This document shows positions 6,335-64,000 of a stretch of 64,000 nt of DNA, one piece after another. The stretch lies in IMG/VR virus record IMGVR_UViG_3300042508_000910. One strand, 5' to 3'. How positions within the stretch are numbered: position 1 is the stretch's first letter; every line of letters begins with the position of its first letter. Under the pieces are notes generated by a model. It was given only the letters and a program-made list of their open reading frames with translations. It searched no databases and was not told the origin of the DNA. The DNA comes from a virus. A program made the translations under genes and the position numbers.

Positions 6335-6352
6335 CACTAGCTACGGAGCTAT

Positions 6353-7205: not shown

Positions 7206-7289
7206 ATCTAAATTCTAATTTAGATTACACCAAATAGCAAATATGATTTGCAATATAGGTAAATAAATAATATAATAATACAACATATT

Positions 7290-7361: not shown

Positions 7362-7378
7362 TATACTTGTGATAGTTA

Positions 7379-26261: not shown

Positions 26262-29200
26262 ATGGCAGAAATACAAGTTGATGTCACATTACCTAGTGCA
26301 ACTTCTGTAGATGTAACATCTCCAACACAAGCTCTTGCTGCAAATGTTATAATACCTGGTCCTCAAGGTCCAAGAGGACTACCTTTAAGTTTAAATAATA
26401 TAACTTCAGATTATATCACCATAACTGGACAAGATGGTAATTATGTTTATACAGGGTTAAATACAATTTATATTTCTGGTAATAGTGGATATTTTCAATC
26501 TGCAATCAATACTTTAACAACTAATTTAAATTTGACTGGCGCCAATTTAAATACTTCAATAAATAATTTAAGTGGATTGTTTACTGGATATACTGGTTCT
26601 TTAGATGCAACATATGCAACAGACTCTCAATTACAACAAACAGGAAGCTCTCTTGTTAATTCTATAAATTCACTTAGCGGAACGTTAACTTCTACATATG
26701 CAACAATTACTAATCTTGCTCTCACAGGCTCTACATTACAAACTCAAATAAATAATCTTGATAATACTTATGCTACTGATATAGCTCTTGCTTCTACTGG
26801 AAATACACTACAGACTCAGATTAATAATCTTGGTACGACATATGCAACAGTAACAAATTTAGCTTTAACTGGCTCTACATTAGAGAATAAAATAGGTTCA
26901 CTAAGTGGAACATTAACTTCTGATTATGCTACTATTATTAATCTTGCAAGCACTGGAACAACATTACAAAACTATATAAATTCACTCAGCGGTAGTTCAG
27001 TCTTGTTATACGGAAATCAAACAATAGATGGTACGAAAACTTTTAGAGATAAAGTTTATATTCATGATCTTTATGTTACAGGAACAGAATTCATAGCTAA
27101 TGTACAAAATAATTTTATTGAGAGTCCATATATTCTTCTTAATCTTACTGGTGGCGCAACAGATGGAGGCATTTTCTTTGTCACTGGTTCTGGACTAACT
27201 GGAATAAACGATCTTGGTCCAATCATAGGTTTTGATCATACTGATAAATTTAAATTTGGTATATCCAGCAGAGGATCAGATCTTTCAACATTAAATGATA
27301 TTGCCGCTTTTCAAGATATTACTGCTTATAGTGGTTTTGTTAATAATAAATATGCCACTATAATAAATTTAGCTAGTACTGGTTCTACTCTACAAAATCA
27401 AATAGATAACCTTGGTAATACTTATGCTACTGTAACAAATCTTGCCTCGACTGGTAGTACATTAGAGAGTAAGATAGCTTCCTTAAGTGGTTCAGCAGTT
27501 TTACTATATGGAGACCAAACCATATCTGGTGATAAAACTTTTACACAGAATATAAATATATCAGGTACAGGAACATTTAATGCTGTAGATCTTAATAATA
27601 TAGATCAATTAAGTCTAAGTGGTATAGACATTAGTGTTACGAGTTCAACGGTTAATGTTTATGGTAATATTTTAATCTCTGGTAATCCTGTGCTAACAGG
27701 TATACCAGATGCTAATTGGGCAAGTCAAGCTGAAATAAATTCTTTAAGTGGTCAAGTAGTATTTACTACTGGTGATCAAACGATCAATGGTCTAAAAACT
27801 TTTACATCGGGCATAGATATTTATAGCGGTACAAATCCTCAATCAATCCGAGTATTTAATCAGACAGGAACTAATACTGGTGAGTTTGGATTATTTGGCT
27901 GGCAAAATAATCAATTAGTTATAGGTTCGCAGGCAACTAATTCTGGAATATTAAGAAATATTACAATAACTGGATCAAATATCAACATAACAACAACTGG
28001 AGAAGTATATATTGGGGATGGAGCTTTAAGAGTTGGTAAAAATACGGCAGGTGGTACAAATATTATAGCAGCAGGAACAAATGTTTTATCTCTTCAAGGA
28101 AATGCAACAAATGGTGGTTATGGAAATGTTGCGATTGGGCCAAATGGAGCAGCTCAATTTTTCGTACCATTATATGGATATCCTCAAGTTAGATCAGATG
28201 GTTATTATGCATGGTCAAATAATATTGGAAATGCAGCGTCAACCCCAGATTTATATTTATATCGCGATTCAGCAGGAATTCTTGCTCAACGCAATGGAAC
28301 TAGTGCTCAACAGTTTAGAGTTTATAATTCAACAGGTACAAATTCTGGAGAGTTTGGTTTAATTGGTTGGATTACAGGTTCTGGATTTTCTCCTTCTTTT
28401 ATAATTGGCGCTCAAGCTACTAATAGTGGAATATTGAGATCTTTAATAATTACTGGTGATAGCATAAGTTATAGTGGAAAAAGATTAACTATTGCACATG
28501 CAAATGCTGGTTTATTCTTTGATGCAACTGGTCCAACAATTCGTGGTAATCATTGGGGCGCAGGAGATGCAGGTTTTGTTACTTATAGAAATGGTCTTGA
28601 TATGGGTCGAGGAGGAGCAAAATTCCTACGAGTAGATGCTGGTAGTCCAACAGTAATAGTTGGAAATGGTGCAACTAGTTCTTTAGCAGGTATAGGATTT
28701 GATGGAACAAACTCTAATTTAGATCTTCCAGATGCATTTATTATACGTGATGCTTCTGGAGTTTTATCATTAAGAAATCCAAGAACAAATCTTGGTAATT
28801 CACCTCAACAATTTAGAATTTATAATACAACTGGTACTAATTCTGGTGAATTTGGACTAATTGGATGGCAAAATAATCAACTATTTATTGGAGCCCAAAA
28901 ACAGATCTCAGGAATACTAAGAGATATCGTTGTATCTGGCGCAAATATAAATCTATATGCTATGGGCGATGGAACAGTCCAAGGTGGACAATTACAAATA
29001 CCATATAATACAGATTATAATTCACTAACATTTAGAAATATTCAAAGCAATGTAAACTATTTACAATTAAAAAGATATCTAGGATCTACTTCTGGTCCAT
29101 TATTTACAACTATAGGATTTGCTTCATCAATATCAACAAATAGCGCTTCTACTGCAGATCTTCTTGTAGAAAGAGATGCCGCTGGAATCTTAGCTCAACG

Positions 29201-42714: not shown

Positions 42715-45700
42715 ATGGCTGGAAATATAGGAGATTTACAGTTTAATTTAACAGCAAATACATCCCAATTAGAAAGGGATGTAGCAGCAGCTTTAAGAAG
42801 ACTAGAGAGTAAAGGATTTAATCTTGGTGCTGGAATTAATGCTAGAGCATTTACTCAGCCTCTTGGTAGAATTACTGGCGCTGCAAACGAGTTCCAAAAA
42901 TCATTAGACGCTTCTAATGCTCGTGTTATTGCATTCGGTGCCTCTGCAGGAGCAATCTATAATGTCCAAAGAGCATTTACAGCATTAATTGGTAGTACCA
43001 TTGAGGTTCAAAAATCTTTAACAGATATTAATGTCATTTTAAATGCTAGCTCCAAAACTCTTGGTCAATTTGGTGATCAATTATTTGAAATAGCAAGAAA
43101 TAGTGGTCAAGCATTTTCTACTGTCGCTACTGCTGCTGGAGAGCTTGCTCGTCAAGGTTTAACAATAGAACAAACATTAAAAAGAACAAGTGACGCTCTT
43201 ATATTGGCTCGTCTTTCTGGATTAGATGCAGCTTCTAGCGTAGAAGCTTTAACAGCTTCGATTAATTCATTTAATCAATCCGCACTTGATTCAACTCAAA
43301 TTGTTAATAAATTAGCGAGTGTTGACGCTGCATTTGCAGTTAGTTCATCGGATCTTGCTGAAGCCTTAAAACGAGTTGGTAGTTCTGCTCAAGATGTTGG
43401 CGTTAGTTTTGATGAATTGTTAGCTATTGTTGCAAGCGTTAATCAAACTACAGCCCGAGGTGGAGCCGTTATTGGAAACTCATTAAAAACAATTTTCACT
43501 CGAATTCAAAGAACAGATGTTCTCGATCAGTTAGAATCTTTAGGAGTTGCTGTTAGAGATTTAGAAGGAAATACAGCTCCAGCGATTCAAGTTTTAACTG
43601 GTCTAGCTTCAAAATTTGATCAATTAGGAAGCGCACAAAAAGCACAAGTTGCAGAACTTGTCGGCGGCGTTTTCCAGATTAACGTATTAAAAGCCGCTTT
43701 AGGAGATTTGAGTCGAGAATATTCAGTCTTTGGTAACGCTTTAAAAGTTTCAACAAATGCAAGCGACGAAGCTATAAGAAGAAATGAAGAACTTAATAAA
43801 ACATTATCTGCATTATTAAATAGAACTGTAGCAAATCTAACAAAGGTCGGTAGTGAAATTGGCGGTTTAACTTTTGCTCCAGCTATTGAAAAAGTATTAA
43901 ATGGATTAAATACAGCTCTTGAAGGTTTTGATGTAAAAGGAGATAGCATAGGAAGTAAAATAGGAAAAGGAATCTTTGAAGGCATTGGGAGCTTTGTATC
44001 TGGTCCTGGACTTGCACTATTGATTGGCGTTTTCTTAAAAATATTTGGTAATCTAGCTAAATTTACAGGTGACGCTGCAAGAACTATTCTTGGATTAAAT
44101 AAAGAAGCTCAAGCACAAGCTCAAATACAAGAAAGAATTAATAATATTCTTGCTCAAAATCCACAACTTGTACAAAATATTTTAAATAAACAAACAACAC
44201 TCTTGCAAGTAGAAAGAGACATCTTAACAGTTATCCAAGCTCAATCTCAAGCTAGACAGCAAAGCGCTGCAGTTGCAACAAATATTAGCCGAGGTTTAAT
44301 ATCAAAAGGCGTAACAGTACAAGGTGGAGCAATTACCGCTAGAACAAAAAGTCAAGGATTTATTCCTAATTTTAGTGCTAATAGAGAGATTATGGGTGCT
44401 ATTTCTGGTGGATATATGCCTGGTCAAGTTCGTTCTATGAATATTCCTAACTATGGAAGAATAACTTACAACACAGCAGAAGAAGTTAAAAGATTTCCAG
44501 GATTATCTCAACCAGGAATTATGCCACCAGAAGGAAGTGAAGCAGGAAAAAATTATAAACAAAAATTTAAAAATAAATATGGAATTGATCCTTATGCAAG
44601 TAAAGGATTTGTTCCTAATTTTTTAAGTGCAGCACAAATTGCAGCAAGATTAAGGCGAAACGAAATGACTCAAGAAGAGGCTACAAGACTTGGTTATAAA
44701 TCTACGAAACAAAAACAAGCTGAAAGAACAACGCCTTCTGGAATTCCTGTTTCATCTCTTTCTCCTCTTTTAGCTCTAAGATCTACTGGTGGAAAACAAG
44801 GGTATACTTTTAAACCAAAAGATGGACCACAAGTAAATGTCACTTTTCCAGTTATACCATTTGATCAGCAATCTACTGGATTTAAACTTTCAGATTTACG
44901 AACAAATCTAGATAAAGTAATAGATAAATCTATCTCTGATTTTGCCACAAGTATATACAAAAGTAGAGAATTAACACCACCAATTGATCTTCCTTCAACT
45001 ATTGAGCAAGCCAGAAAACAAGCAGATGGTTTATCTGGTTCCATAGAGGGAACAATTGGTGGAATTTTTGAATCCGCATTTCGTGCTGCATTTGGTCGTA
45101 GCGTAAAAGCAACAAAAGGTGGAGCTAATTTTGATGTAGCTAAAATACCAAAAGATCTTGGTATATTTTTCCCAGGAGCTGTTACTGGTATTCCTGGAGA
45201 TTTTAAAAGTTCTGATAGTGATGAAAATCGTAGAAGTATGGCTTTAAAAGTATTAAGTAATCAGCAGCCAGCTTTATATAGTTTACTTACTAAAAGGACA
45301 GCCTCTCAAGGTTTTATTCCTAATTTTTCTCCTTTAGAAAAAGCTTTTAGCACAGAGAAAAGTCTTGGCGGAAAGCCAACTCTTGATTATAAAGAAGGCC
45401 TTGGTCTTTATGTTAGAGATGGTAAGACTCAACCTAACTTTGCAGCAGTAATGCGCGATCATCCAGAAGGCATGCAAAGAGCGATTAAGAATTCTAAAAT
45501 GATGCAAGGTATGTATGGTTCAGGAGGATTTATACCAAATTTCCAAGCTTTAGATCCAATGAGTATTTTCTTTCTTGCTCAAAGTTTCTTAGGAGGTGGC
45601 GGTAGAGACGCAGGAGAAGCAGAACAAATAAAATTAGAACAGAAAAGATATAGGGATCTTCTTAAAGAAAGAAATCTTAATTTGAGAGTGCTGAAAGAAC

Positions 45701-48700
45701 TTGAGAATGCAGCCGTTAGAGATGAAAAAGCTATCAGTTATGCAAGGCAAGAATATAATACATCTTTATCTAATTTAGCTCAATATCAAAAACAAGCAAG
45801 ACTAGAGGGACCAATCTTTACTGGAAGAGGTGCAACACAAGCTCAAAGAGCAGCTGATTTTGCAAGAAGAGGTGGAGTAGGTGGAGCTTTTGGTAGATTT
45901 GGCGCAAGATATGGTTCTGGTATTGCGCTTGCAGCACCACTTGCTACAGGTGTAGCTTCTCAATTTGTAGGAGATGATGTTACAAGAGTCGGCAGAGCAC
46001 AGAAAGCAGGTGTTACAGGACTTGGAACAGTAGCTTCTTTCGCTGGATTAGGAGCATTAGTTGGTGGCCCAATTGGAGCGGGTGTGGGAGCTACTGTCGG
46101 TGCAGGTATAGCTATATATGATGTATTTAAACAACTCAAAGATATAATGCCAGAAGTTGCAAAAGAAATAGAAGATGCAAATGAAAGATTTAATAATCTT
46201 AGCGCTGGAGCACAAGCATTAAATACATCTCTTGAGACGTTAAGGACAGTACAAGAAAGAAGCGATATTTCAGCAGAAACTCGTGCAAAATTAGTAGTTA
46301 AAGCAAATGAAGATTTTGCAAATGGACTAAATCAAATTGCTCTTGCCTCAAAACCTGCTGCAGATGAAATTTTAAAATTATATCAAACTCTTGGGGATAC
46401 TCCAGATCTTAGAGAAAGAATTAATTTAGAGTTAGCAAAATCTAGAGATATTTTAGATGTTTCTCAAAGTAAAGGTGGATTCATTAAAAGCTCTAAAGAT
46501 CTAGAAGGTTTACTCGATAGATTTGGTCCAGGATTCTTAACAGGCACAAAAGGTGTTTCAGATTTAAATGCAGAAGAATTAACAAGATATAGAGGTTTAA
46601 TAGGTCAACAAGCTCAATCTCTTTCAAAATATTTTGAAGGTATTACTGGTCGTGAACTAGATGTAAAAGGAATAGAAGATCTTAAAAGAATATATCAAGA
46701 AAGTAGCGGAAACCTTGATAAAATTAAACAAGGACTCTTAGGTTTAGATATACCAGCTAGCCAAGCAGAAGCTATTATTGCTCTTTTAGGAGAAGGAAAA
46801 GGTGATCTTTCTCCAGTATTTGATGCGATGTTAGAGATAGAGAAACGCATGCAAGCAATTAGAGATGCTCAAGCAAATATGCAAACTGAAATAGCAAGAG
46901 GAGCAAGACCAATTACAAATATAGCAGAATTACAACAAGCATTTCAAAGACCAGGCGGAATAACATCTACAGCTTTAGGAAGAATAGATTATAGGCAATT
47001 AAATGAAGGATTAGGAATAGAAAGAAATAAAGCGTTTACTCAAGATGCTATTAGTCAATTTACGACGCTAAGTAATGAAGTTGGAAATACTTCCAAAGGT
47101 ATTGAATTAATGAAAGGCTTTGTGGAGGAAGCGGCAAAAGCCCAGAAAGAATATAATGATGGAGTTATAACATTAACTCAAGCAAGCGAAAAATTAAAAT
47201 ATACTTTTGATAAAATCATGTTCTCTCAAAATGAATCAAGAATGTTTAGTGATGAAAGAGCACAAGCAGCTATGGATCTTAGACGTTCTGCTTTAAGACA
47301 AGGTAATTTTGCAGAAGGTTTTGCACCTGCCGCTTCATTCTTTGATAAATTTGGTGATAATGCAATTACAACAGCAGATAAAATTAATCAATCTTTTGCT
47401 AATCTTGCTGAAAATATGCAAACAGGATTTGAAGATGCATTTGGTGCATTTATAGATGGTACAAAAAGTGCAGAAGATGCATTTAGAGATTTTGCATTAA
47501 ATTTAGCTCAACAAACTATTAAAGAACAATTTAGTATTGGTTTAAGAAGTTTATTAGGTAATTTAACAGGAGGTGGTGGAGCTGCTACAGGTATTGGTGG
47601 AGGTGGTGGAATAGGTGGATTTTTGAATAATATTTTTGGAGGCGGCGGAGGAGGTGGAGGTGGTCTATTTGGTTTTGCAAGTGGTGGTAGAGTAAGAAAA
47701 TATAGTGGTGGTGGCTATGTTGATGGTGGAAGTGGAGTAAGAGATGATGTTCCTGCAATGCTAACAGATGGTGAATATGTATTAAGAAAAAGCGCAGTTA
47801 ATAGATATGGTCTTGGTATGTTAAATATGTTAAATGGTGGCGGAAGAGTAAGAGGATTTGCGACAGGAGGATCAGTTAGTGCTTTATTACAAAATGCTTA
47901 TGATTTTTATGGTGTTGCAGGAGAAAGATTAACAACCCAATATACTCCAGAAGCTTTTGCAACTACGGTAACTGGACCAGAACAATTAGGAAATGTACCA
48001 GCCCTAACTGGAAGATTCAACATCTCAGATCTTTTAAGTTCTCGTGCAATGGTAAATGAAGATAATCCAATGGTAGCATTAAGAAACGAAAGGTTTCTTG
48101 GAATGCAAAATTATCAACAACAAGTAGCTAATTTTAAAACAGGCTATAATGAACAAATGCGTCAAGTTGAAGAAGCTAGAAGAAGAGCTCAAGAAGAAGC
48201 AGATAGAATTAATTCAGAAAGAATGGCGGCTTACAATAGACAAAGAACAGGAACTTTAATTGGTGGTTTACTTAATGTAGGTTTACAAGCTTTTGGTGGA
48301 CTCTCTTCTTTAGGTGGTGGACTAGGTGGACTTGGCGGTGGTGGAGGTGGTGGATTAAATATTGGAGGTTTATTTCAAGATATCGCTGGAAGAGCTATTG
48401 GCTTCGTACAGAATGCTATTACTGGAGGTGGTGGAATGTCTGGAGGAACTGTAGGAGGTATTTCACCTGAACAACAAAAATATATGTCAGAACAGATTCG
48501 TCAAGGTCAAAGAGCTGGATATCAAGATCCATTTAGGCAACAAGCTCAATTATTTCCTCAATTTGGAGGAGCAGGAGGATATGGTGGCGGATTTGGCGGA
48601 AGTATGTTTGCTCAACCATCTTCTAGTTTTGGAGGATTTCAATATAATGTAGGATTAGGTACACCAGCAGGATTTCAAACTCAGTTTCAAAGTCCATTAG

Positions 48701-50814
48701 ATTTCTATAGAACAAATTTTGCTAATCCTGTTGCACCATTAACATATGGTCGTGGTAATCTTATTATCGCTACAAATCCTTATGATCGCACAGGACAATT
48801 TTATGCTAAAGGTGGATTAGTTAAAGGATATCAAACTGGTGGCAAAGTTGAATCATTTGTAAATAGATATTATCCTTACGCTGTTCAAGCCGCTCAAAGA
48901 TTAGGAACATCTCCAGAAGCTTTATTAGCTCAATTAGCTCTTGAGAGTGGATATGGAACTTCTAAATTATCAGCATCAAATAATCTAGGAGGATTAACTG
49001 CTGGTCGTGGATATAAGGGAAGCACAGTTGCTTTACCAGCAAATAGATTTGATAAAAATGTTGGAATATATGGTAATAGAACATATAGATCTTATGCTAG
49101 TACTCAAGAGTTTTTTGATGATTATGTTGCATTTTTATCCAAAGATAGGTACAAAGGAACATTAGGAATTACTGATCCTGGAGCTAGAGCATCAGCGTTA
49201 ATGAGAGCAGGATATGTTGCTGGAGATCCTAATTATGCTGCAAAAATACAAAGAATTGCTGGAAGATTGCAGCCTGTAATTTCACAGAATGTATTAGGTG
49301 GCTCCACAATGATTGCAGATTATAGAAATATACAGAATCAATTAGATCGCGCTGTTAAATATGCATCTAATGTGGGTCGTAGCAATTTAATGTCAACAGA
49401 AGTTGATCCAGAAGGAGCTTTTATAACTCGTGGCGCAAACATTTCTCAAAGAGCTCCACAGCAAATGGCAGGATTTTCATTTAGATTGCCTCAAATGTTT
49501 GGTACTTTAGATACACCAGTAAGAAATCCATTTGCAGAGGCTAATGCTCCATTTTTTAGACCTTCTGGCGCTCCATTAAAAGGTCCAGTTAGTACTAGAG
49601 GCTATAGTGGACCTTACGTTGGTCCTGGTCGTGGAGGATATCCATCCTATGAAGCTATTAAGGCTAGAGTTCAAAGTGGTCAAGGCGCTGGTGGAGCAGG
49701 TTCTTTGTTTCCAGATTATAATAAAGCTGCTTTAGATTATTGGTCAAATCAAATTTTTGGTGGTGCAGGATTAGCTGCTGGTCGTTTAGGTGGAACAACT
49801 CCAAGTCTTTATCAAGATGTAGGAAGTCTTTTAGACACAAGAGATCGTGGAAATTATGCAAGAGTAGCATCAAGATTTGCTCCATTCTATGGTGGCACAG
49901 CACAGAATAGATTCTTGTATCAACCATCTCCATCAAATTTTGGTCAAACAGGATTTAACAATTATTTAAAATATATTGGTTTAAATCCATTAACAACAAG
50001 TTTAGATTCATTAGCTTCTTATCGTGCCCCAATGACTCCTGGAATGTATAGTCCATATGCATTTGCAAGTAGTTATTTTGGTGGTTTTGGTGGATCAGGT
50101 TATCAATCAGGCTTCAGTTCCACAGGAAATGTATTTAGTAATTATTTCTCAACAGGTAGTAGATTAGGTATAACACCAAGTTGGCAAGCAAGAGCAACTG
50201 GTGGACCAATATATGGTGGCTCTTCATACAGAGACGATGTACCAGCTATGCTTATGGGTGGAGAATATGTTATTCGTAAAGATGTTGTTGATAGAATGGG
50301 CCAACCATTTTTTGATAGATTAAATCGTGGTCAAATGAATTTTGCAGAAGGTGGCCCAGTAGGTACTGGCTTACCTTCAATAGGAGTTGGCGGAGAAGGC
50401 AACGGACAACAAGATAATTCAAGAGTTCAATTTATTGAAGCTTTAACAAAACTTTTAAGATCGCTCGATCAACTAAACAAAACAGTAGAAGAGCAAACTC
50501 GTCAACAGAGAGATACAAAAGAATCTCAAGTTACCTCAACAGAAACAGAAACTAGTGGCGGTGGAGTAACTAATAATATTACTATTAGTGTCAATGTTGA
50601 TCAAAATGGTAAAACAACTGATACACAGAAACAAGAGAATCAAGACAGCAGCGGAAACGATATGAATGATCAAGAGAAGTTTAAGAAGACTCTTGAAAGA
50701 TCCAGAATGCTTTCTGAAATGTTAAGACAACAAGTATTAAAGGTTATTGTAGAAGAACAGCGTCCAGGTGGAGTATTATATCAAGGCTCTAAGGGACGCG
50801 ATATGGGTCGCTAA
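42715..50814 (+). CDS. Tape measure protein with GH73/FlgJ-like muramidase domain
   Basis: TP901-type N-terminal region (ELARQG, LAEAL.R.GS.A, IGNSLKTIFTR); AQLALESGYG...NNLGG...Y...DPNYAAK near 48850-49260. Confidence 0.9.
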   Translation: MAGNIGDLQFNLTANTSQLERDVAAALRRLESKGFNLGAGINARAFTQPLGRITGAANEFQKSLDASNARVIAFGASAGAIYNVQRAFTALIGSTIEVQKSLTDINVILNASSKTLGQFGDQLFEIARNSGQAFSTVATAAGELARQGLTIEQTLKRTSDALILARLSGLDAASSVEALTASINSFNQSALDSTQIVNKLASVDAAFAVSSSDLAEALKRVGSSAQDVGVSFDELLAIVASVNQTTARGGAVIGNSLKTIFTRIQRTDVLDQLESLGVAVRDLEGNTAPAIQVLTGLASKFDQLGSAQKAQVAELVGGVFQINVLKAALGDLSREYSVFGNALKVSTNASDEAIRRNEELNKTLSALLNRTVANLTKVGSEIGGLTFAPAIEKVLNGLNTALEGFDVKGDSIGSKIGKGIFEGIGSFVSGPGLALLIGVFLKIFGNLAKFTGDAARTILGLNKEAQAQAQIQERINNILAQNPQLVQNILNKQTTLLQVERDILTVIQAQSQARQQSAAVATNISRGLISKGVTVQGGAITARTKSQGFIPNFSANREIMGAISGGYMPGQVRSMNIPNYGRITYNTAEEVKRFPGLSQPGIMPPEGSEAGKNYKQKFKNKYGIDPYASKGFVPNFLSAAQIAARLRRNEMTQEEATRLGYKSTKQKQAERTTPSGIPVSSLSPLLALRSTGGKQGYTFKPKDGPQVNVTFPVIPFDQQSTGFKLSDLRTNLDKVIDKSISDFATSIYKSRELTPPIDLPSTIEQARKQADGLSGSIEGTIGGIFESAFRAAFGRSVKATKGGANFDVAKIPKDLGIFFPGAVTGIPGDFKSSDSDENRRSMALKVLSNQQPALYSLLTKRTASQGFIPNFSPLEKAFSTEKSLGGKPTLDYKEGLGLYVRDGKTQPNFAAVMRDHPEGMQRAIKNSKMMQGMYGSGGFIPNFQALDPMSIFFLAQSFLGGGGRDAGEAEQIKLEQKRYRDLLKERNLNLRVLKELENAAVRDEKAISYARQEYNTSLSNLAQYQKQARLEGPIFTGRGATQAQRAADFARRGGVGGAFGRFGARYGSGIALAAPLATGVASQFVGDDVTRVGRAQKAGVTGLGTVASFAGLGALVGGPIGAGVGATVGAGIAIYDVFKQLKDIMPEVAKEIEDANERFNNLSAGAQALNTSLETLRTVQERSDISAETRAKLVVKANEDFANGLNQIALASKPAADEILKLYQTLGDTPDLRERINLELAKSRDILDVSQSKGGFIKSSKDLEGLLDRFGPGFLTGTKGVSDLNAEELTRYRGLIGQQAQSLSKYFEGITGRELDVKGIEDLKRIYQESSGNLDKIKQGLLGLDIPASQAEAIIALLGEGKGDLSPVFDAMLEIEKRMQAIRDAQANMQTEIARGARPITNIAELQQAFQRPGGITSTALGRIDYRQLNEGLGIERNKAFTQDAISQFTTLSNEVGNTSKGIELMKGFVEEAAKAQKEYNDGVITLTQASEKLKYTFDKIMFSQNESRMFSDERAQAAMDLRRSALRQGNFAEGFAPAASFFDKFGDNAITTADKINQSFANLAENMQTGFEDAFGAFIDGTKSAEDAFRDFALNLAQQTIKEQFSIGLRSLLGNLTGGGGAATGIGGGGGIGGFLNNIFGGGGGGGGGLFGFASGGRVRKYSGGGYVDGGSGVRDDVPAMLTDGEYVLRKSAVNRYGLGMLNMLNGGGRVRGFATGGSVSALLQNAYDFYGVAGERLTTQYTPEAFATTVTGPEQLGNVPALTGRFNISDLLSSRAMVNEDNPMVALRNERFLGMQNYQQQVANFKTGYNEQMRQVEEARRRAQEEADRINSERMAAYNRQRTGTLIGGLLNVGLQAFGGLSSLGGGLGGLGGGGGGGLNIGGLFQDIAGRAIGFVQNAITGGGGMSGGTVGGISPEQQKYMSEQIRQGQRAGYQDPFRQQAQLFPQFGGAGGYGGGFGGSMFAQPSSSFGGFQYNVGLGTPAGFQTQFQSPLDFYRTNFANPVAPLTYGRGNLIIATNPYDRTGQFYAKGGLVKGYQTGGKVESFVNRYYPYAVQAAQRLGTSPEALLAQLALESGYGTSKLSASNNLGGLTAGRGYKGSTVALPANRFDKNVGIYGNRTYRSYASTQEFFDDYVAFLSKDRYKGTLGITDPGARASALMRAGYVAGDPNYAAKIQRIAGRLQPVISQNVLGGSTMIADYRNIQNQLDRAVKYASNVGRSNLMSTEVDPEGAFITRGANISQRAPQQMAGFSFRLPQMFGTLDTPVRNPFAEANAPFFRPSGAPLKGPVSTRGYSGPYVGPGRGGYPSYEAIKARVQSGQGAGGAGSLFPDYNKAALDYWSNQIFGGAGLAAGRLGGTTPSLYQDVGSLLDTRDRGNYARVASRFAPFYGGTAQNRFLYQPSPSNFGQTGFNNYLKYIGLNPLTTSLDSLASYRAPMTPGMYSPYAFASSYFGGFGGSGYQSGFSSTGNVFSNYFSTGSRLGITPSWQARATGGPIYGGSSYRDDVPAMLMGGEYVIRKDVVDRMGQPFFDRLNRGQMNFAEGGPVGTGLPSIGVGGEGNGQQDNSRVQFIEALTKLLRSLDQLNKTVEEQTRQQRDTKESQVTSTETETSGGGVTNNITISVNVDQNGKTTDTQKQENQDSSGNDMNDQEKFKKTLERSRMLSEMLRQQVLKVIVEEQRPGGVLYQGSKGRDMGR

Positions 50815-56165: not shown

Positions 56166-59100
56166 TTATATATCGTCTCCTAATGCATATTTTGTCTCAT
56201 CATATTGAAGCGCGGTAACTTTGTATCTATTCTCTTCTTGCTCTTCTATATCTAAGATTCTAAATTTTTGAGTTTTATCTAAATAAGGCTCTAGATAAGC
56301 TCCAGGATATAATCCTGTATTACTAAATCCAGATACGCTTGGACTTTTACTAAAATCATAAAAATTAGGATCAACTTCTATTGTCCAAACTGTATTTTGT
56401 AATAAAGTATGCTCAACATTATCTAATTCAGATGTTCCAAAATTAATCCTTGTAAAGCCATTAAAATTCGTCCCAGTCTCTAGAGATATTGCATCAGCAA
56501 AAATAGATTGAGTACCATTTTCTAATGTTGTATTATTATATTCTATAGTTTGAACTTGTTTTCTTCTTATTAAGGATGTACTAATTCCAGAAGATATTGC
56601 ATTAATATTTCCATCTTTATATGGAATAATATTATTTCCAGTGTAAGTCATCGCTTCATTTCCAGCTTCTGTACCGATCTCGATATTACCTGCTGGAGTT
56701 AATATATTAAATTTGCAACCTTGAATAGCTGGTAAAAATCCAGAGATATCTTCGTATTTTACGTCAAGTATTGCTGAGTTCTTGTCTAAACTAAATGTTC
56801 TCCCTCCTAATACCTTATTTTGTCTATTCTGATCTTGTACTAATATTATATCTCCTGGTTTTAAATACAAAGCTGGTAGACTTGTTTCAAAATTTACCAA
56901 CTCTGATTCAAAATTTTCTGATAATAATGTCCATTTACCGAGTCTTTCTGCTTGACCTTCGCTTGTGCATCCAAAAGCGCTAACTTCTATTTCTCTAATA
57001 CCAAATTTAATTAAGCCATCTCTATTTTCTACATATTTAACCGCTGGTTTATAAAAATTTTCTTTATCATTATATCTAACTAATGCAACATTTCTTCTTA
57101 CTCTTTTACTTGTATTACTATATGTAAATTCTCCATCTTTGACGTTAGAATTATTAAATAAATATATAGACTCTTTTGGTCTATCTTGAGAAGTCATAAT
57201 TAATCCCGCACTATAATAGACTATAGCTCTAAAGACACTCGCCATATCATTCATTACTTTATAAGCATCTTCTCTTGTACTAATTAAAACATTACATGTG
57301 AATCTTGGTTCAAGACCACCTCTACCATCGCTAACAAGCTCATCACAATATTTACTAATTTCATAAAGTGTCCATTTATCTGTAAATTGTGGATCAATAT
57401 ATTTTCCAAGTCCATATCTTTTATTCGTAATTATATCATAAAAGCACCAAGCTGGGTTATCTGTCCAAGCTAGTTTAAATGTACCATCCCAAATAGGAGG
57501 ATCATATGTTTTACTAAATGGATTATAATTAGTTGGAACTTTTACCTTTAGTAATCTTGTATCATAGGCTCTTTGTGGAATACTTTGGAAAAATCTTGCA
57601 TCAAAAGTTGTCATTACTCCTGCTGTATGAGGAAGAACAAGAAAATCATTATATATTTCTGTAATAGAGTCTATAGCGGATTTTAATAATATATTTGCAT
57701 CAACACTCTCTGTATAAGTTGGTTCTATTTCTATTTCCCATCCAATTGTATTGTCATTTGTCTCTTTGTCTAATCCTGTCCACTCAAATGTTTCAATATA
57801 TGGTCCAGCATTTAACTTACCAGTCATTATTAATGTAGAATATTCTTCTGGAAGATTTAAATCAGGTTTAATAGGAGTGATAACGAGTCCACCTGAATCT
57901 ACCCCACGATCTACTCTTTTTAGATATAATTTAAATGTCATACTCTGTCTATCAATTCTACCACCTACGCTATTCTCAGCTGCTTGATCTGATGTGTCCC
58001 AAATAGTTAAATCTACAATTTGTTTAAATAAACTCAAAGCTTTTATATGCAATTTTAATCCATAAAGATCTTTAGTAAGAATAGTTATTGATTTTTTATA
58101 AGTTTTCTCTGAACCATCTTGGAATTTTCTTTTTCCAAATAGTTTTGAACCAACTGTTTTGGTACTAGTTAATCTCTTAGGTAATTTAATTTGTTCTGCT
58201 ATTACTGTACCATTCTCATCTCTAGCCTTTAAATAATTAACATAAATACCATTTTGTATTTGTCTAGAATAATACTCTTCTTCAAGACTAATATTTTTCA
58301 ATTCATCTATATTTGTATGTCTTGGTGCAGAATCTCCATTATCAAATTTTAATCTTATAAACTCAAAATTTAAACTTCCATTATTTGGATATGTATTGTC
58401 TGCTAATGGAATTTCATTCCAATATACAGATCTAATAAGAGAGGAATTCCCTGGATATCTTTTAATAGTAACGCCATTTTTATATCCAATATCTCCTTTT
58501 TGAAAACCAGGGTTTGGTATAATTTCATAATCAACAATACCTTCAATCGGTCCTTCGCCTAAAACATCAAGAATTGATATATTTGTTAAAGATGTTATTC
58601 CTATATCTTTTGATTCAAGAAGGCTATTTCTATATTGATAACCATAATTAATTATGGTTGAAGTTGCAGCAGCTTGACTAACAAGAGTAGTACAATTTGC
58701 TGGGATAGAAGATGAAGTTAAAGTAACGTTCTCTGAATAATTATATGCACGTTTTGTTTGCCATCCTCTTGAAGTATAAATTCGACACCCACCTTTTCTG
58801 CTGCATTCTACAGTTCCTATCTTTATTCCAGGTCCACGGCCATTATGAACAAATATATTTTCAGCGATATAAGTATGATATTTGTCTACTTCTAAATTGT
58901 AAACAACATCCATGCCAATATATTTTTTACTTTTAATCTGTAGCTTTTTCTTATCGAAAGATGTTAAATTCTCACCCACTTCAATATCGTTTAGGAATTT
59001 AAATTCTCCATTTACTAGGAATTGATGACTTAATGTAGATTTGATAATTGTACCATCTTCTAATTCTATTTGATATATAGGTTGAGGTTCCTTATTATGA

Positions 59101-61592
59101 TCTATAAAATCTATAACTTTTGAAATATGAATATCCTCATTTTCATCAAAAGCTAAAACTTCATCATCTACTTTAATTTTTTCAATTTCGATGTCGCCTT
59201 TTGGAGTTTTTACTTTTGTTCCTTTTGCAAAACATGTTCCTTTGAAGACGCAAGAATAAACGTCTCCAGCTCTTGGGGCAAGAGTTACTCCAATATACAT
59301 TGTAAATCTTGTAAAGATATAATTAAACGCACAACTATCTGTAAATCTTACATAATAAGTATATGTTCCATTTGCATTTGGAATTCCATTTGGGTAAGCT
59401 AAAAGCTTGCTTTTAGGTAATCTTTGGTTTGCAAATTCAGAAGTTGTGTCAAAACTAGGGCCAGAATCAAATACCACTTGATGCTCTACTGTTGATGGAC
59501 TCATAGATATAATTGGAACATTTTGAGCTGGATCAGCACTTATACCAGTTTTAGTATTACCGCCAGACGTTACATCTATATTCTGTGAATAAGGTTTTGA
59601 AACTGGTCCATTTGTACTATCTGGTGGATAACAAGCGTTACCTATACCATCTACAAGCCCAGCAGATGCAAAATCAACATCGTATGTGCCATTAATGTCT
59701 ATTGTACCAATTATATTTCTAAATTCACGAGCAGGATTACGTATATTTTCTACTGATATCCAAAGACACGTTTCTGCATCTTTACTATTACCAGGAATAA
59801 AAGTTAAAAAATTAGCATTCGTTGAGTCATAGTTGATTTGCAATCCTTCTAATTGAATCCCGTCAGGATATCCATCCTTACGGATTTTGTCAAATTCATT
59901 CTTGTTAATTTTCTTATATTTAATAAAATCGCCTAAATTTGGAGAAAATATAGATGTTCGACTACTAATTAAAGATTTTATAATAAATTTATTATTTTTT
60001 ATAATATCAAAGTTTCCTTGAGGTAAATTAATTGTAGAAGGAAAAGAAGCTCCTTCATTTGGATTTCTTTCAATATAATCTGTAAAATTAAAAGTTAAAG
60101 TTACTTTTGATGTTGTTCCTCTATCATTAGAAGCGCTTGCATATGCGTAAAAAATTCCAGCATGTTTAACTGTTCCTGATATTACATTTTTTGTAGCGTT
60201 ATAAGAAAGTCCATCAGGTAAAGAAGATATTGCTATGATCCTTTGTTTTCCATTTAATCCGCGTATTGAATTGCTGAATTTATCTCCAACTGAACCACCA
60301 TAAGTAAATGCAGAAATAGTTGGTAATGGGCCAGTAGTTGCTTGTTTCCCAACTATAGCACTTAGATTAAATTCTTTCTGGTTTCCAGAATCAAAATCTG
60401 GGCCACGAATAGTAAATAATAGATTTTGTATTTCTATCTGATCTTTAATACTATTAGAAACTGTACCAGATATAGTTTTTGTTTGATGATTAAAAGATAA
60501 ATTTAAATATTGAAGTAAATCTTTTGTTTTTGGTGGTACGTAAACACTAAATTGACTTGAAGATATTAAATTCGTTGTTATAGTATAACTAATAGACTGC
60601 CCTTTAAATAAACTTATTGTTGGCGCACTAGTAACATACATTGGATCTTGAATATCACTACTTTGACATTTTATAGTAATACTTCTTGTTGATTTAAATG
60701 TTTCTGTTTCATAAACTGGTTTGTTTCTTGTACCTACATTGACTACTTTGCTACCACGTACATGAGTAGTAATATAACCTGTATCATACCCAACGATATT
60801 AATCTTATTTTTTATGAAATTTTTATTTTTTGTGATATTATATGTATATAATTGTGCAAATCCACTAGTAGTTACCGATCTTGTTGCATAAGTAAATCTA
60901 AATAAATCTCCACTAACATAATTAACTGTTCCATAAGTTTTTAATCCAAGATTACTTCCGCTTGAAAAAATAACATAAATTCTGTCTCCTACAATTAAAC
61001 CATGGTTACTATAAGTCACGCTAACTTCATTACCATTTTGAGAATAACTAACATCATATACATCAGAAAATCTAATAGGATCATTTGAATTCGTTTCTGC
61101 AATAGAACTGAAACCATTAAATGTAAAATAAGATGGTAATGTATCTGTTTGAAATTGTGTTATAAATGGTTCATTTTTTATCGCCGATAAAACCGTTGCA
61201 TTTGATACGGTTTTATTTATAAAATTTTGATAAGCCGCAGTTATTGATGCTGGAGTTATACCAACTCCTGGGCTTCCATACATAATTAACCCATCTGTTA
61301 AACTCCAAACGAACCAAAATCCTCGACTATTATCAATTCCATTAATTTTTATCGCATTATTTTGAGACACTGGCCAAGACCTTAATGAACCAGGAGAAAA
61401 TATTGGATTATAAGCATCAAGCATGTCATCAACATTTGCGAGCATATCTGTGGTAGGCTCATTATTAGCATCATATGGTTGTCCAATATCGTTATAATTA
61501 TTAAAATTATCAAAAGATACTCCATTTTCTCCGCGATATGCAAGTCCTTCAATATATTTATTTGGATCGCAATCTTTACATTTTTTAGCCAT
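56166..61592 (-). CDS. Central tail fibre / tip attachment protein J with N-terminal Ig-like extension and Hint domain
   Basis: EGPIEG, WDGTFK.AWTDNPAWCFYD, RYGLG, DKWTLYEI.KYCDELV.DG.GG.EPRFTCN, GCTSEGQA.R.GKW (lambda J hallmarks). Confidence 0.92.
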   Translation of the reverse strand: MAKKCKDCDPNKYIEGLAYRGENGVSFDNFNNYNDIGQPYDANNEPTTDMLANVDDMLDAYNPIFSPGSLRSWPVSQNNAIKINGIDNSRGFWFVWSLTDGLIMYGSPGVGITPASITAAYQNFINKTVSNATVLSAIKNEPFITQFQTDTLPSYFTFNGFSSIAETNSNDPIRFSDVYDVSYSQNGNEVSVTYSNHGLIVGDRIYVIFSSGSNLGLKTYGTVNYVSGDLFRFTYATRSVTTSGFAQLYTYNITKNKNFIKNKINIVGYDTGYITTHVRGSKVVNVGTRNKPVYETETFKSTRSITIKCQSSDIQDPMYVTSAPTISLFKGQSISYTITTNLISSSQFSVYVPPKTKDLLQYLNLSFNHQTKTISGTVSNSIKDQIEIQNLLFTIRGPDFDSGNQKEFNLSAIVGKQATTGPLPTISAFTYGGSVGDKFSNSIRGLNGKQRIIAISSLPDGLSYNATKNVISGTVKHAGIFYAYASASNDRGTTSKVTLTFNFTDYIERNPNEGASFPSTINLPQGNFDIIKNNKFIIKSLISSRTSIFSPNLGDFIKYKKINKNEFDKIRKDGYPDGIQLEGLQINYDSTNANFLTFIPGNSKDAETCLWISVENIRNPAREFRNIIGTIDINGTYDVDFASAGLVDGIGNACYPPDSTNGPVSKPYSQNIDVTSGGNTKTGISADPAQNVPIISMSPSTVEHQVVFDSGPSFDTTSEFANQRLPKSKLLAYPNGIPNANGTYTYYVRFTDSCAFNYIFTRFTMYIGVTLAPRAGDVYSCVFKGTCFAKGTKVKTPKGDIEIEKIKVDDEVLAFDENEDIHISKVIDFIDHNKEPQPIYQIELEDGTIIKSTLSHQFLVNGEFKFLNDIEVGENLTSFDKKKLQIKSKKYIGMDVVYNLEVDKYHTYIAENIFVHNGRGPGIKIGTVECSRKGGCRIYTSRGWQTKRAYNYSENVTLTSSSIPANCTTLVSQAAATSTIINYGYQYRNSLLESKDIGITSLTNISILDVLGEGPIEGIVDYEIIPNPGFQKGDIGYKNGVTIKRYPGNSSLIRSVYWNEIPLADNTYPNNGSLNFEFIRLKFDNGDSAPRHTNIDELKNISLEEEYYSRQIQNGIYVNYLKARDENGTVIAEQIKLPKRLTSTKTVGSKLFGKRKFQDGSEKTYKKSITILTKDLYGLKLHIKALSLFKQIVDLTIWDTSDQAAENSVGGRIDRQSMTFKLYLKRVDRGVDSGGLVITPIKPDLNLPEEYSTLIMTGKLNAGPYIETFEWTGLDKETNDNTIGWEIEIEPTYTESVDANILLKSAIDSITEIYNDFLVLPHTAGVMTTFDARFFQSIPQRAYDTRLLKVKVPTNYNPFSKTYDPPIWDGTFKLAWTDNPAWCFYDIITNKRYGLGKYIDPQFTDKWTLYEISKYCDELVSDGRGGLEPRFTCNVLISTREDAYKVMNDMASVFRAIVYYSAGLIMTSQDRPKESIYLFNNSNVKDGEFTYSNTSKRVRRNVALVRYNDKENFYKPAVKYVENRDGLIKFGIREIEVSAFGCTSEGQAERLGKWTLLSENFESELVNFETSLPALYLKPGDIILVQDQNRQNKVLGGRTFSLDKNSAILDVKYEDISGFLPAIQGCKFNILTPAGNIEIGTEAGNEAMTYTGNNIIPYKDGNINAISSGISTSLIRRKQVQTIEYNNTTLENGTQSIFADAISLETGTNFNGFTRINFGTSELDNVEHTLLQNTVWTIEVDPNFYDFSKSPSVSGFSNTGLYPGAYLEPYLDKTQKFRILDIEEQEENRYKVTALQYDETKYALGDDI
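58842..59234 (-). other. Hint domain in gpJ (BIL/PT-HINT-like, 131 aa)
   Basis: CFAKGTKV...STLSHQF...VYNLEVDKYHTYIAENIFVHN, followed by Gly. Confidence 0.9.
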
Positions 61593-61593: not shown

Positions 61594-62907
61594 TTAATTT
61601 CCTGCGTTTAATGAAGAATCTGACAAGGAGTTTCCTTGTACATCTTGAATATCTATGGCCGTACCATAATGAGTAAAGTAATAACTTTTAGTTGGATAGT
61701 TTTGTTGTCCTGCATCCTCTGGAGGTTTACCTGCACTATCATATTTATTAGCTCTAGACTGTATACGATATAATTGATCATAAGAACTAAATACTTGATG
61801 ACTTCCTACAATTAATCTTCCATAACCTATTGGAATTGGACCACCTTCTCCTACCGTATTGACTGGTCCATTAAAAGTATAAGAAGGTTCACCTCCACCA
61901 CTATCAGGCGAAGCTTCAAAATCTGCAGAAGGATTAGCGATTTGTTGTGGACTTACCATTGGTGGTGGTTTCATTAACAACATTGAGACTCCTAGAGAGA
62001 TTAAACCAACTATAGCTGGAAGTAAAGCTCCTAATAGACCAAGAGATCCTCCACCAGTTATAGGTGATAATAAAATACCTAAAAATATAGCAAAGATACC
62101 TTTAACTCCACCACCCATTCCTCCCTTTCCTCCACCAGCTTTACCACCTCCTCCATTATGTACTCTTATTTCATCTGCAATATAGGTATGATATTCTTTA
62201 ACATGAAAATTATAAGTTTTTTCGAAACCTATTTCTTCTATATTTTCTATTGGAAGAACATCTCCGCTTTCATGAATTAATACATCTCCAATTTGAAATT
62301 TTTCAAGAGGCGCAAATCTATTATATTCATTTAAAAACCAATGGTTTGGAGTAGCTTTTATAATTTTTCCACCCCATAAAGTAACTTTTAGAATCTTATT
62401 AGATTCATGTGAAAAAGTTTTTTCTATTATATCTTCGTGAATTTTCCCATCTTTATCAAAAGATAAAATCTTATCTCCTTCTTTTAGATCTTCAATATTT
62501 GATAAACCATTAGGCGTAGATATTCTTGTTCCAGATGGAAAACATCCTCCACCACCTCCACCACCTCCGCCTCCACCAGCACCTTCTAAAATTGGAACAA
62601 CATCGATTGTTTTCAATTCTTTTCCGAAATTCATAACAATTTCTGATTTATTCAATATTTCAAAATGCTCTCTTTTTAAATCTTTTAATTCTTGAGGTAG
62701 TTTTTCTGGTTTTGGAACCCAAACTGGACGATTATTTATTAAAATTTCGTATTTAGCATTCTTCTCTGCTTGCTCAATAAGTAGTTTAGTAAATTTTTGA
62801 GTATTAGCTTCTATTGCTCTAAAAGCCTCGGCAACGCTTGAAACTTCTAGGTTCCATTCTGAACCTAATTCTTCACCCAAATAACCATGTAGATTAACCT
62901 TAACCAT
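61594..62907 (-). CDS. Tail assembly protein I (ubiquitin-like N-terminus) with Hint domain
   Basis: V.LHG.LG...W.LEV.S.AEA.RAI...I.VVP.LEG; C-terminal SY.FNGPVNT...G.PIPIGYGRLIVGS. Confidence 0.88.
   Translation of the reverse strand: MVKVNLHGYLGEELGSEWNLEVSSVAEAFRAIEANTQKFTKLLIEQAEKNAKYEILINNRPVWVPKPEKLPQELKDLKREHFEILNKSEIVMNFGKELKTIDVVPILEGAGGGGGGGGGGGCFPSGTRISTPNGLSNIEDLKEGDKILSFDKDGKIHEDIIEKTFSHESNKILKVTLWGGKIIKATPNHWFLNEYNRFAPLEKFQIGDVLIHESGDVLPIENIEEIGFEKTYNFHVKEYHTYIADEIRVHNGGGGKAGGGKGGMGGGVKGIFAIFLGILLSPITGGGSLGLLGALLPAIVGLISLGVSMLLMKPPPMVSPQQIANPSADFEASPDSGGGEPSYTFNGPVNTVGEGGPIPIGYGRLIVGSHQVFSSYDQLYRIQSRANKYDSAGKPPEDAGQQNYPTKSYYFTHYGTAIDIQDVQGNSLSDSSLNAGN
62155..62544 (-). other. 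Hint domain in gpI (130 aa)
   Basis: CFPSGTRIS...ATPNHWF...TYNFHVKEYHTYIADEIRVHN; preceded by 11 Gly and followed by GGGG. Confidence 0.9.
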
Positions 62908-63653
62908 TATAGTTTGCTCCTATGCCTTAAAACATAACTTGTATGTTTCTTATAAAAGCTATCATATAAATTTACACAAGAAAAAGAATTATAAGGTTGA
63001 TGTAGGATTAAATTATTACCTAGAAAAACAGCCGCATGAGTTGGATATTCTTCTGAAACACTGGGAAAAAGCATCATTAATCCATCTGATTTTTTCAAAG
63101 GAGTATCCTTATCTAATTTAACAAAACCTTGTTCTATAAAATTATTTTCATATAAACTTTTAATATCTTTTAATGATCTTGGATAAGAATTTATCTTTGG
63201 AAAATTAATCTTAACATTCTCTTCTTTTAAAGCGTACTCTTGCATTAATGTAAAACAATCTGATCTACCTAACATAAATGGTCTTCCAATATAGGGGTTC
63301 TTCTCAGAATTTGGACTATAAAATTTAAATTCATCATATTTAACATTATAAAGTATATAATGTATATTATATTTGTTACTATTCTCTTTATCCATTTCGC
63401 TAAATTCTAAATTATCATTAGAATGAGAATGATAGCATGCTGTAATTTTCCCTAATAAAGTGCATGATAAATATTCTTGAGGAGAGATTAAAAAATTATT
63501 GTTTTTTTGATTTGCTGTATTTTTACATGGATAAATATCAAATTTATATGTATTTTGGTCAAAATAGATAAAACCACAAACTTCTTGTGGATATTTTTTA
63601 ATACTTTCATTCTTAATCTTTTCTTTAAGTTGAAGGTTAAACTCTAGGTTCAT
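62907..63653 (-). CDS. Tail assembly protein K (JAB/MPN plus NlpC/P60)
   Basis: EVCGFI...HSHS.....S..D JAMM motif; GRPF..G..DC...HAAVFLG...ILH. Confidence 0.9.
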   Translation of the reverse strand: MNLEFNLQLKEKIKNESIKKYPQEVCGFIYFDQNTYKFDIYPCKNTANQKNNNFLISPQEYLSCTLLGKITACYHSHSNDNLEFSEMDKENSNKYNIHYILYNVKYDEFKFYSPNSEKNPYIGRPFMLGRSDCFTLMQEYALKEENVKINFPKINSYPRSLKDIKSLYENNFIEQGFVKLDKDTPLKKSDGLMMLFPSVSEEYPTHAAVFLGNNLILHQPYNSFSCVNLYDSFYKKHTSYVLRHRSKL

Positions 63654-64000
63654 GAAGATTGTGGTCCTTGCTGACTTTGATATTTTCCTTCTACAGATGG
63701 AAAACCTCCAAATGGTAATAGACCAATTAATTGATTTCCATTCGCATCTTTTGGAGATTGTATATTATAAGCAATTAAATTATCTATGATTTCAACATTC
63801 TGTCCAACTGCAGTAGAATATGCGCTATAATTATAGCTACCAGAAAATGTTTTTTGTTGAAAATTAGGATTTTCTTTCCATCTTAATCTGCAACCATTTA
63901 GAGTTTTTGAACATGTGTCTGATAACCAATAATTTTGATTAGGTGGCGCATTAATTGCGTTAGCTGTATGATCTTGAGTGCAGACAAAATAATATTTAAT
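63650..64000 (-). CDS. Minor tail protein L, C-terminal part (truncated by window edge)
   Basis: Read manually: W.SDTCSKTLNGCRLRW...LPFGGFP; ATGA overlap with gpK. Confidence 0.85.
   Translation of the reverse strand: MKYYFVCTQDHTANAINAPPNQNYWLSDTCSKTLNGCRLRWKENPNFQQKTFSGSYNYSAYSTAVGQNVEIIDNLIAYNIQSPKDANGNQLIGLLPFGGFPSVEGKYQSQQGPQSS

Follow-up and report, generated by a model that had tools for sequence, protein, structure and literature searches.

The viral DNA analysed here is a stretch of 64,000 nucleotides (IMG/VR record IMGVR_UViG_3300042508_000910, hereafter the window) with a lambda-like tail-tip module on the minus strand at its end. The tail assembly protein I of this module (gpI; 437 amino acids, 61594..62907, minus strand) carries a Hint domain of the bacterial intein-like (BIL) type A within the linker between its ubiquitin-like (Ubl) domain and its structural part. 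The protein consists, in order, of a beta-grasp Ubl domain (residues 1–109), a tract of eleven glycines (Gly11), the 130-residue Hint domain, GGGGK repeats, hydrophobic helices and a structural domain resembling that of lambda gpI, and 27 protein clusters with 53%–99% identity to gpI had the same architecture. Judging from the comparative sequence evidence, the BIL is probably active and processes gpI in cis, either by cleavage or by aminolytic splicing, as a self-removing passenger that was possibly co-opted as a pro-domain.

The Hint domain occupies residues 122–251 (62155..62544, minus strand), beginning with Cys122 (Cys1), carrying the block B motif T186-x-x-H189, ending in H250-N251 and containing no endonuclease insert. 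The Pfam model PT-HINT (PF07591) matched residues 129–251 (1.4e-13; 51.7 bits against a curated cut-off of 27.7), and the best sequence match in the PDB was the bacterial intein-like domain 2LWY of C. thermocellum (E 2.5e-16). In the AlphaFold2 (AF2) prediction, residues 122–251 reached a predicted local distance difference test (pLDDT) score above 90, and Foldseek ranked 2lwy first (E 1.3e-12; target-normalised template modelling score, TMt, 0.86), followed by BIL2 of Tetrahymena BUBL1 (6Y75/6TMM) and then by ordinary mini-inteins. A Hint domain at this position had been called in the original prediction, and profile, sequence and structural comparisons all agree with that call. Seven residues (C122, T186, N188, H189, H240, H250 and N251) were invariant among 43 sequences. 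Because the Hint of the main lineage diverges as fast as the Ubl domain (ca. 70% identity) while its catalytic residues stay invariant, it is vertically inherited and under selection for catalysis. The residue after the domain (+1) was never Cys, Ser or Thr: it was Gly in all gpI copies, Gly, Met, Arg or Ile in copies located in gpJ and Lys in a further gpI lineage, P0137. By its fold, Cys1, TxxH motif, His-Asn terminus, non-nucleophilic +1 residue, lack of an endonuclease and position in a variable linker, the gpI Hint is a type-A BIL. BILs of this type have been described as keeping the His-Asn pair, forming an N-terminal thioester and cutting the C-terminus by Asn cyclisation; according to the same accounts, they mostly cleave, but they can also splice, through attack of the freed alpha-amine on the thioester (PMC4031507; PMC7664689).

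Two other assignments were considered and rejected. A canonical class 1 intein does not match a domain with Gly252 at +1 in a low-complexity inter-domain linker, and standard trans-esterification splicing is impossible for the gpI Hint because the +1 nucleophile is absent. The pretoxin Hint of polymorphic toxins was set aside since the gpI structural domain, rather than a toxin module, lies downstream. Nothing in the base composition pointed to a recent foreign origin (GC content: Hint 0.27, Ubl 0.31, C-terminal domain 0.37).

The part of gpI upstream of the Hint (residues 1–109; 62581..62907, minus strand) ends in Pro105 and Gly109, both of which were invariant in 63 sequences. An AF2 model of residues 1–121, built from 53 sequences, had a mean pLDDT of 89, and the top 50 Foldseek matches of the Ubl model all belonged to MoaD, ThiS, SAMP, Urm1 or ubiquitin, although with weak E-values (best 0.018) and TMt of at most 0.67. 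Despite these weak E-values, the fold class was unanimous, and residues 1–109 are accordingly modelled as a Ubl beta-grasp domain, as the original prediction had proposed. The model also agrees with the TAPI Ubl of lambda-type gpI described by Iyer, Burroughs and Aravind in 2006 (PMC1779556). Around the Hint, gpI reads VVPILEG109-A-G11-C122-FPSG, then T186PNH189, then VH250N251-GGGGKAGGGK, before a hydrophobic stretch and the conserved C-terminal domain; the open reading frame confirmed every element of the initial sequence reading (Ubl, G11, C122, TxxH, HN, Gly at +1, hydrophobic and C-terminal regions). Profile matches covered both ends of the protein (phrog_32 at residues 1–114, 2.3e-25; phrog_4554 at residues 299–372). 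The hydrophobic helices and the C-terminal structural (plug/beta) domain span residues 271–437 (61597..62097, minus strand), and the C-terminal part matched solved tail-tip chains, namely 9l9p_A (2.2e-9), 25vf_9 (3.7e-6) and lambda gpI itself (8iyk_I, 6.8e-4). The protein thus shows the features of a lambda-type TAPI/gpI: a Ubl domain with a conserved Gly, a Gly-rich linker, hydrophobic helices, a C-terminal domain like that of virion gpI and a gene located between K and J. In the lambda virion, gpI is seen only from residue 101 onwards, with its hydrophobic helices and plug lying within the gpJ cone (PMC11101478).

The Hint interrupts the linker downstream of the Ubl domain. On its N-terminal side, the linker comprises Ala110 and Gly111–Gly121 (62545..62580, minus strand), with Gly121 as the –1 residue and candidate thioester carrier; on its C-terminal side, a Gly/Lys stretch covers residues 252–270 (GGGGKAGGGKGGMGGGVKG; 62098..62154, minus strand), with Gly252 at +1 and lysines at +5 and +10. 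The original prediction placed the Hint exactly at the Gly tail of the Ubl domain. This placement was not upheld: in 41 of 42 relatives, Cys1 comes 10–12 residues after the invariant Gly109, and in the remaining one 19 residues after it. Hint-less relatives of ca. 295 amino acids read EGAG(7–10)-K-GGGGK and Hint-bearing ones EGAG(10–12), Hint, GGGGK, with the alignment placing both linkers at the same position. The alignment therefore describes a clean insertion into the linker, not one at the Ubl terminus. The –1 residue was Gly, except for Ser in two sequences, and GGGGK directly followed the His-Asn pair in 36 of 42 sequences. The long Gly/Lys linker marks the whole clade, including its Hint-less members, and more distant gpI proteins have short linkers; from this distribution, the linker lysines are read as ancestral linker features. 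At the nucleotide level, the Gly codons flanking the Hint are near-repeats (GGT GGA GGA upstream, GGA GGA GGT GGT downstream), which could permit in-frame deletion of the Hint by recombination, and such a loss might yield a product resembling the Hint-less alleles.

The distribution of the domain was examined by typing gpK, gpI and gpJ in 80 IMG/VR loci and four assembly loci. A gpI Hint was present in 28 fetched loci and the window, all within one gpI clade (support 97), and the other 63 gpI sequences had none; P0019, P0023 and P0030 were counted as Hint-bearing on the basis of Pfam. Within this clade, two sub-clades (P0028/P0029 and L001/P0031/P0033) were truly Hint-less. The sister phages L001, without a Hint, and L002, with one, share 83% identity in gpK, 74% in the gpI exteins and 64% in gpJ. 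Because Hint-less lineages nest inside the Hint-bearing clade with the same K-I-J module, the gpI Hint is, on this phylogenetic evidence, dispensable within the clade. A second Hint lineage, designated alt (L002/P0027 and P0024–26, with P0026 assigned by identity), is 38%–44% identical to the main lineage and occupies the same site in non-sister hosts, a pattern read as replacement of the main Hint by the alt Hint in some clade members. A third gpI lineage, P0137 (L085:8001-9113), emerged from a search of 1.84 billion representatives. Its Hint directly follows EGSG without poly-Gly, has Lys at +1 and is immediately followed by a hydrophobic helix; the phage has the same M-L-K-I-J module, an intact JAMM motif in gpK and no Hint in gpJ. 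In this survey of homologues, of the kind proposed with the original prediction, a Hint at the Ubl boundary recurred in the main, alt and P0137 lineages and was absent from the two nested sub-clades.

The adjacent gene encodes a gpK-like tail assembly protein of 248 amino acids (62907..63653, minus strand) with a JAB/JAMM domain at ca. 1–118 and an NlpC/P60 domain at ca. 120–248 (Prok-JAB PF14464, 2.5e-7; NlpC/P60 PF00877, 5.8e-6; phrog_30, 1.3e-55). Its JAMM motif (HSHSNDNLEFSEMD) is complete, comprising E24 and H75-S-H77-x7-S85-x2-D88, in line with the retention noted at the outset, and the NlpC residues C133 and H206 are invariant. The pattern E...HxHx7Sx2D was intact in 29 of 29 Hint-bearing loci (28 fetched and the window) as well as in P0137, and it was kept in nearly all Hint-less loci. 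The two exceptions were L034, in which HSH is followed by SAAD at a longer spacing of 18 residues, and L042, in which the gpK open reading frame is a 75-amino-acid fragment at a contig start. The Hint and the JAB domain thus do not co-vary in the survey, also not at the catalytic residues for which the original prediction had suggested such a search, and replacement of JAB by the Hint was ruled out by the intact JAMM motif at all Hint-bearing loci.

A complex model of gpK residues 1–120 with gpI residues 1–121 scored 0.69, against 0.00 for the best control. Of 80 solved complexes, 58 reached this level, as did 2 of 110 mismatched pairs, counts that are only roughly valid here because our own alignments were used. 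At least 78% of the contacts were common to the runs, with a partner pLDDT of at least 77, and the modelled contacts joined Ubl residues 102 and 104–113 to gpK residues E24, C26, H75, H77 and S85–D88. The model supports engagement of the Ubl tail (ca. 104–113) by the gpK JAB domain, with the predicted scissile region upstream of the Hint. It fits the reported behaviour of lambda, in which gpK cleaves the Ubl off gpI after gpI has joined the tip complex, as given in the account of a 2025 meeting talk by Davidson (PMC12908700); this cleavage had been predicted in PMC1779556.

The same domain family also occurs in gpJ. In the window, gpJ (1808 amino acids; 56166-61592, minus strand) contains a paralogous BIL/Hint at residues 786–917 (58842-59237, minus strand; PT-HINT 9.2e-9) with Gly at +1, which is 37% identical to the gpI Hint and lies between a 785-amino-acid N-terminal part and the gpJ hub. 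A scan of the window and the fetched loci found Hints in gpI and gpJ only. At the internal gpJ junction, relatives had a Hint with Gly, Met, Arg or Ile at +1, or were contiguous without a Hint (L003, L016 and L029), or were split into two genes (L015 and L023), with a Shine-Dalgarno-like AAGG preceding the second start in L015. From these gene layouts, covalent attachment of the N-terminal part to the hub therefore appears to be optional in gpJ. Presence of the Hint in gpI and in gpJ was independent, with loci bearing both, only the gpI Hint or only the gpJ Hint all found, and the gpJ-site Hints formed a separate clade (support 100/100). This separation and the 37% identity rule out recent copying between the two sites. 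Conserved cross-ligation between the gpI and gpJ Hints was likewise ruled out by the variable gpJ +1 residue (Gly, Met, Arg or Ile), and it is further opposed by the lack of a gpJ Hint in 14 of 28 fetched gpI-Hint loci, in a few of which gpJ is ended by the contig.

Hints at the very N-terminus of gpJ were also frequent. Among the best 150 representatives at 50% identity in a library-wide search, ca. 58 were at least 800 amino acids long with a Hint at about residues 5–150, and five of five such proteins that were checked were gpJ (FNIII-A_GpJ and Phage-tail_3). A common gpJ layout in metagenomic siphophages consists of a leader of ca. 5–25 amino acids, often ending in GGGG, then a BIL, a Gly/Lys linker and gpJ; examples are P0112, which has two tandem Hints, P0123, P0128, P0132, P0136, P0144, L033:2594-7075 and L034:7918-12096. 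In L033, the leader that precedes the gpJ Hint (2594-2650; MKEEIQRIDIVQGEGGGG) is similar to the final beta-strand and Gly tail of the Ubl domain in the phage's own gpI (LKRIDIVPVLEGAG), and this similarity suggests that a Hint cassette was transferred from gpI to gpJ along with part of its flanks. Other proteins recovered were P0113–P0116 and P0122, each of ca. 1000 amino acids with four to five Hint stretches (P0113 also has a Tim44-like domain), and P0108, a phage host-recognition protein of 421 amino acids in which a Hint accompanies a GP38-like tail-fibre adhesin region. The type-A BIL family is, as far as these predicted domains go, a recurrent component of siphophage tail tips, located in the gpI linker, at the gpJ internal junction or at the gpJ N-terminus.

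The fold, catalytic residues, insertion site, distribution and JAB retention are shown by the analysis, and from them we infer the activity of the domain and the balance between cleavage and splicing. Cys122 would carry out an N-S acyl shift on Gly121, giving a Ubl-Gly(n) thioester, and cyclisation of Asn251 would cut the Hint from Gly252. The thioester could then be resolved in cis by water, releasing free Ubl, free Hint and a free C-terminal fragment, or the freed alpha-amine of Gly252 could attack it by the splicing route of type-A BILs, restoring an ordinary gpI. Spliced gpI might subsequently be processed by gpK; in cleaved gpI, the Ubl and the structural part would have been parted earlier. 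Because the JAB domain of lambda gpK cuts the Ubl from the structural part anyway, both outcomes would yield the normal end products. To fit within the gpJ cone, the structural part would have to shed its bulky N-terminal domains, and gpK would still engage the Ubl tail upstream of the Hint. As JAB cleavage upstream would leave the Hint on the plug region, the Hint would have to excise itself, and this need to free itself from the plug region would explain the invariant His-Asn pair. The Hint itself would then be no required part of the Ubl/JAB mechanism. Autoproteolytic self-processing had been named in the original prediction as the simplest alternative to its own proposal, and it is this alternative that the comparative evidence favours: the Hint is dispensable, occurs at sites without a Ubl domain and lies in the linker, and the JAMM motif is constant.

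Several points weigh against cis autoprocessing by a mere passenger. Its long vertical persistence suggests selection for a function beyond tolerance, and a selected function is also suggested by the recurrence of Hints at the boundary between the Ubl and structural parts in three lineages (main, alt and P0137) and by the very common N-terminal Hint of gpJ. In addition, conserved lysines are located just past the Hint (+5 and +10; +1 in P0137), and given these residues and, by analogy, the isopeptide-making Ubl-BIL units of ciliates, a reaction in trans or with a side chain is possible. The good score of the gpK–gpI complex model may reflect likeness to solved JAMM–Ubl complexes and not this particular pair.

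Co-option of the Hint as a maturation device is an explanation we regard as unlikely, and as clearly less probable than autoprocessing by a passenger. Asn-driven C-terminal cleavage, perhaps with N-terminal cleavage, would release, at the appropriate moment, a plug/transmembrane domain whose N-terminus is a defined Gly. As a self-removing pro-domain, the Hint would then supplement or partly replace the gpK step, a role that the N-terminal Hints of gpJ might play as well. The hydrophobic helices, which have to enter the gpJ cone, follow 19 residues after the Hint; JAB alone would leave the Hint attached, as its modelled site is upstream; Hints directly preceding a buried tail-tip component are widespread; and purifying selection acts on the Hint at the rate of the Ubl domain. 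However, Hint-less sister lineages and most gpI families manage without the domain, the JAB catalytic residues are unrelaxed in Hint-bearing phages, and purifying selection on catalytic residues is also expected of a selfish element in an essential protein. Dispensability thus argues for a passenger and recurrence beside buried tip components for co-option.

The original prediction went further, suggesting that the Hint could create a Ubl-Gly thioester without E1 or ATP and thereby allow transfer of the Ubl to other proteins. The thioester is the expected chemistry of any active Hint with this N-terminal flank and has an experimental precedent, absent from the original prediction, in BUBL, but nothing specific to the phage supports the transfer. 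In a BUBL-like conjugation free of E1 and ATP, the Cys122 thioester would pass the Ubl to a lysine (gpI K256 or K261, or one in another tail or host protein), and the gpK JAB domain would remove or edit the product; we consider this improbable. The placement of the Ubl N-terminal to a BIL corresponds to the Tetrahymena BUBL architecture outlined in PMC8616854, and BIL2 is the second-best structural match of the gpI Hint; its similarity (23% identity), however, is not above that to ordinary mini-inteins. The GGGGK that follows the Hint in most relatives would offer acceptor lysines, but these are equally present in Hint-less clade members. In P0137, the Hint comes directly after EGSG with Lys at +1, whereas in the present clade it lies beyond the conserved Ubl Gly by the 10–12 residues given above, and the thioester would sit 12 residues past the Gly recognised by JAB. 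JAB is retained throughout, as editing would need, but the Hint is dispensable, the same family serves sites without a Ubl domain (the gpJ internal junction and N-terminus) and no acceptor-binding or recognition module was found. It is correspondingly improbable that gpI and gpK are a viral prokaryotic counterpart of BUBL, in which the gpI BIL would attach the Ubl and the gpK JAB would deconjugate it as a two-gene Ubl write/erase system in the tail module. An inactive relic, with a non-processing Hint kept as an extra globular domain of mature gpI, is highly improbable: nothing specific speaks for it beyond the poor splicing possible in BILs with a non-nucleophilic +1, and against it stand the invariance of C122, T186, H189, H250 and N251 in 43 sequences, compared with ca. 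40%–70% elsewhere in the Hint, and the difficulty of fitting a 130-amino-acid domain plus the Ubl on the plug region into the gpJ cone, the place of lambda gpI.

The tail-tip module at the window end comprises a gpL fragment, gpK, gpI and gpJ. Only the C-terminal end of gpL (Phage_tail_L; 63650-64000, minus strand) is included. In this phage group, gpL is 776–849 amino acids long (L001:6832-9243, L002:6820-9240 and L003:6930-9260), far larger than the ca. 230 amino acids of lambda gpL. The window DNA, with a GC content of 0.28–0.44, looks like that of an uncultured phage. The gpI relatives derive from metagenomes, one of them labelled as freshwater, and tblastn against 50,697 cultured phage records returned no full-length gpI relative, only partial matches to the Hint alone or the C-terminal domain alone. 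Elsewhere in the window, a cluster of six tRNA genes was found at 2893-7362 on the plus strand (Met-CAT, Lys-TTT, Leu-TAA, Arg-TCT, Ile-TAT and Glu-TTC), of which Ile-TAT is unusually long at 93 nucleotides. Two very large open reading frames lie on the strand opposite the tail-tip module (42715-50814, plus strand, 2699 amino acids; 26262-30872, plus strand, 1536 amino acids).

Descriptions of BILs have otherwise treated them as curiosities of ciliate polyubiquitin-like loci and of variable surface proteins in bacteria, and their presence in siphophage tail tips is apparently wider and undescribed; no mention of gpI or gpJ proteins with a Hint or BIL was found in the open-access literature searched. 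In gpI, the BIL stands between a Ubl domain and the part normally severed by a JAB deubiquitinase-like enzyme, a layout that converges with the Ubl-BIL units of ciliates. The natural pairs of gpI alleles with and without a Hint bear on how BILs with Gly flanks and no +1 nucleophile partition between cleavage and ligation, on self-processing versus the recently reported gpK–gpI assembly checkpoint and on E1-free Ubl transfer in the prokaryotic virosphere, so far known only in ciliates. For protein engineering, a compact BIL of 130 amino acids whose junctions consist entirely of Gly may also be of interest.

Among known systems, the gpI Hint shares with C. thermocellum BIL4 (2LWY) the fold, Cys1, TxxH, His-Asn, the non-nucleophilic +1 residue, the lack of an endonuclease and a position within the variable linker of a protein that is not an enzyme (for type-A BILs, Amitai 2003, Dassa 2004 and Aranko 2013, as cited in PMC4031507 and PMC7664689). 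In contrast to BIL4, its host is a phage tail-tip assembly protein, its N-terminal flank is a Ubl domain and poly-Gly lies on both sides. The fold and blocks A, B and G are common to class 1 mini-inteins (gp41-1, Npu DnaB/DnaE and Mtu RecA), which differ in having a +1 nucleophile and in occupying conserved active sites and not low-complexity linkers. The pretoxin family PF07591 gave the best Pfam match, and as in pretoxin proteins a Hint located where two domains meet would free a downstream module by autoproteolysis, although this module is a virion structural domain here and not a toxin. The module resembles that of lambda in its K-I-J order, in a gpI with a Ubl domain ending in Gly, a Gly-rich linker, hydrophobic helices and a C-terminal domain, and in a gpK combining JAB and NlpC/P60; unlike in lambda (tail-tip structures 8IYK/8XCG), whose gpI has no Hint, the linker is a greatly expanded poly-Gly/Lys stretch interrupted by a BIL, and gpJ and gpL have large extra regions. 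The relevance to host Bil-type defences, which tag the central tail fibre (bioRxiv 10.1101/2023.09.04.556158), that the original prediction suggested is speculative and found no support in the analysis. In the eukaryotic BUBL system of Tetrahymena, conjugation has been experimentally shown: BIL2 is described as attaching ubl4, independently of ATP, to lysines in both ubl5 and Ras (PMC8616854 section 2.4; Dassa 2004 TIG and Chiarini 2021, as cited therein). In BUBL, arranged as BIL-Ubl-BIL-Ubl, a further BIL precedes the Ubl, whereas the gpI Ubl begins with Met1 and no Hints other than those of gpI and gpJ occur in the window; the gpI Ubl is also of the MoaD/ThiS-like TAPI type, with a Gly spacer of 10–12 residues, a dispensable Hint and a JAB partner. 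Nevertheless, both systems place a Ubl directly N-terminal to Cys1 (Ubl-Gly12-Cys122 here and EGSG-Cys in P0137) and lysines in the C-terminal flank, and in both Cys1 would activate the Ubl C-terminus without E1 or ATP.

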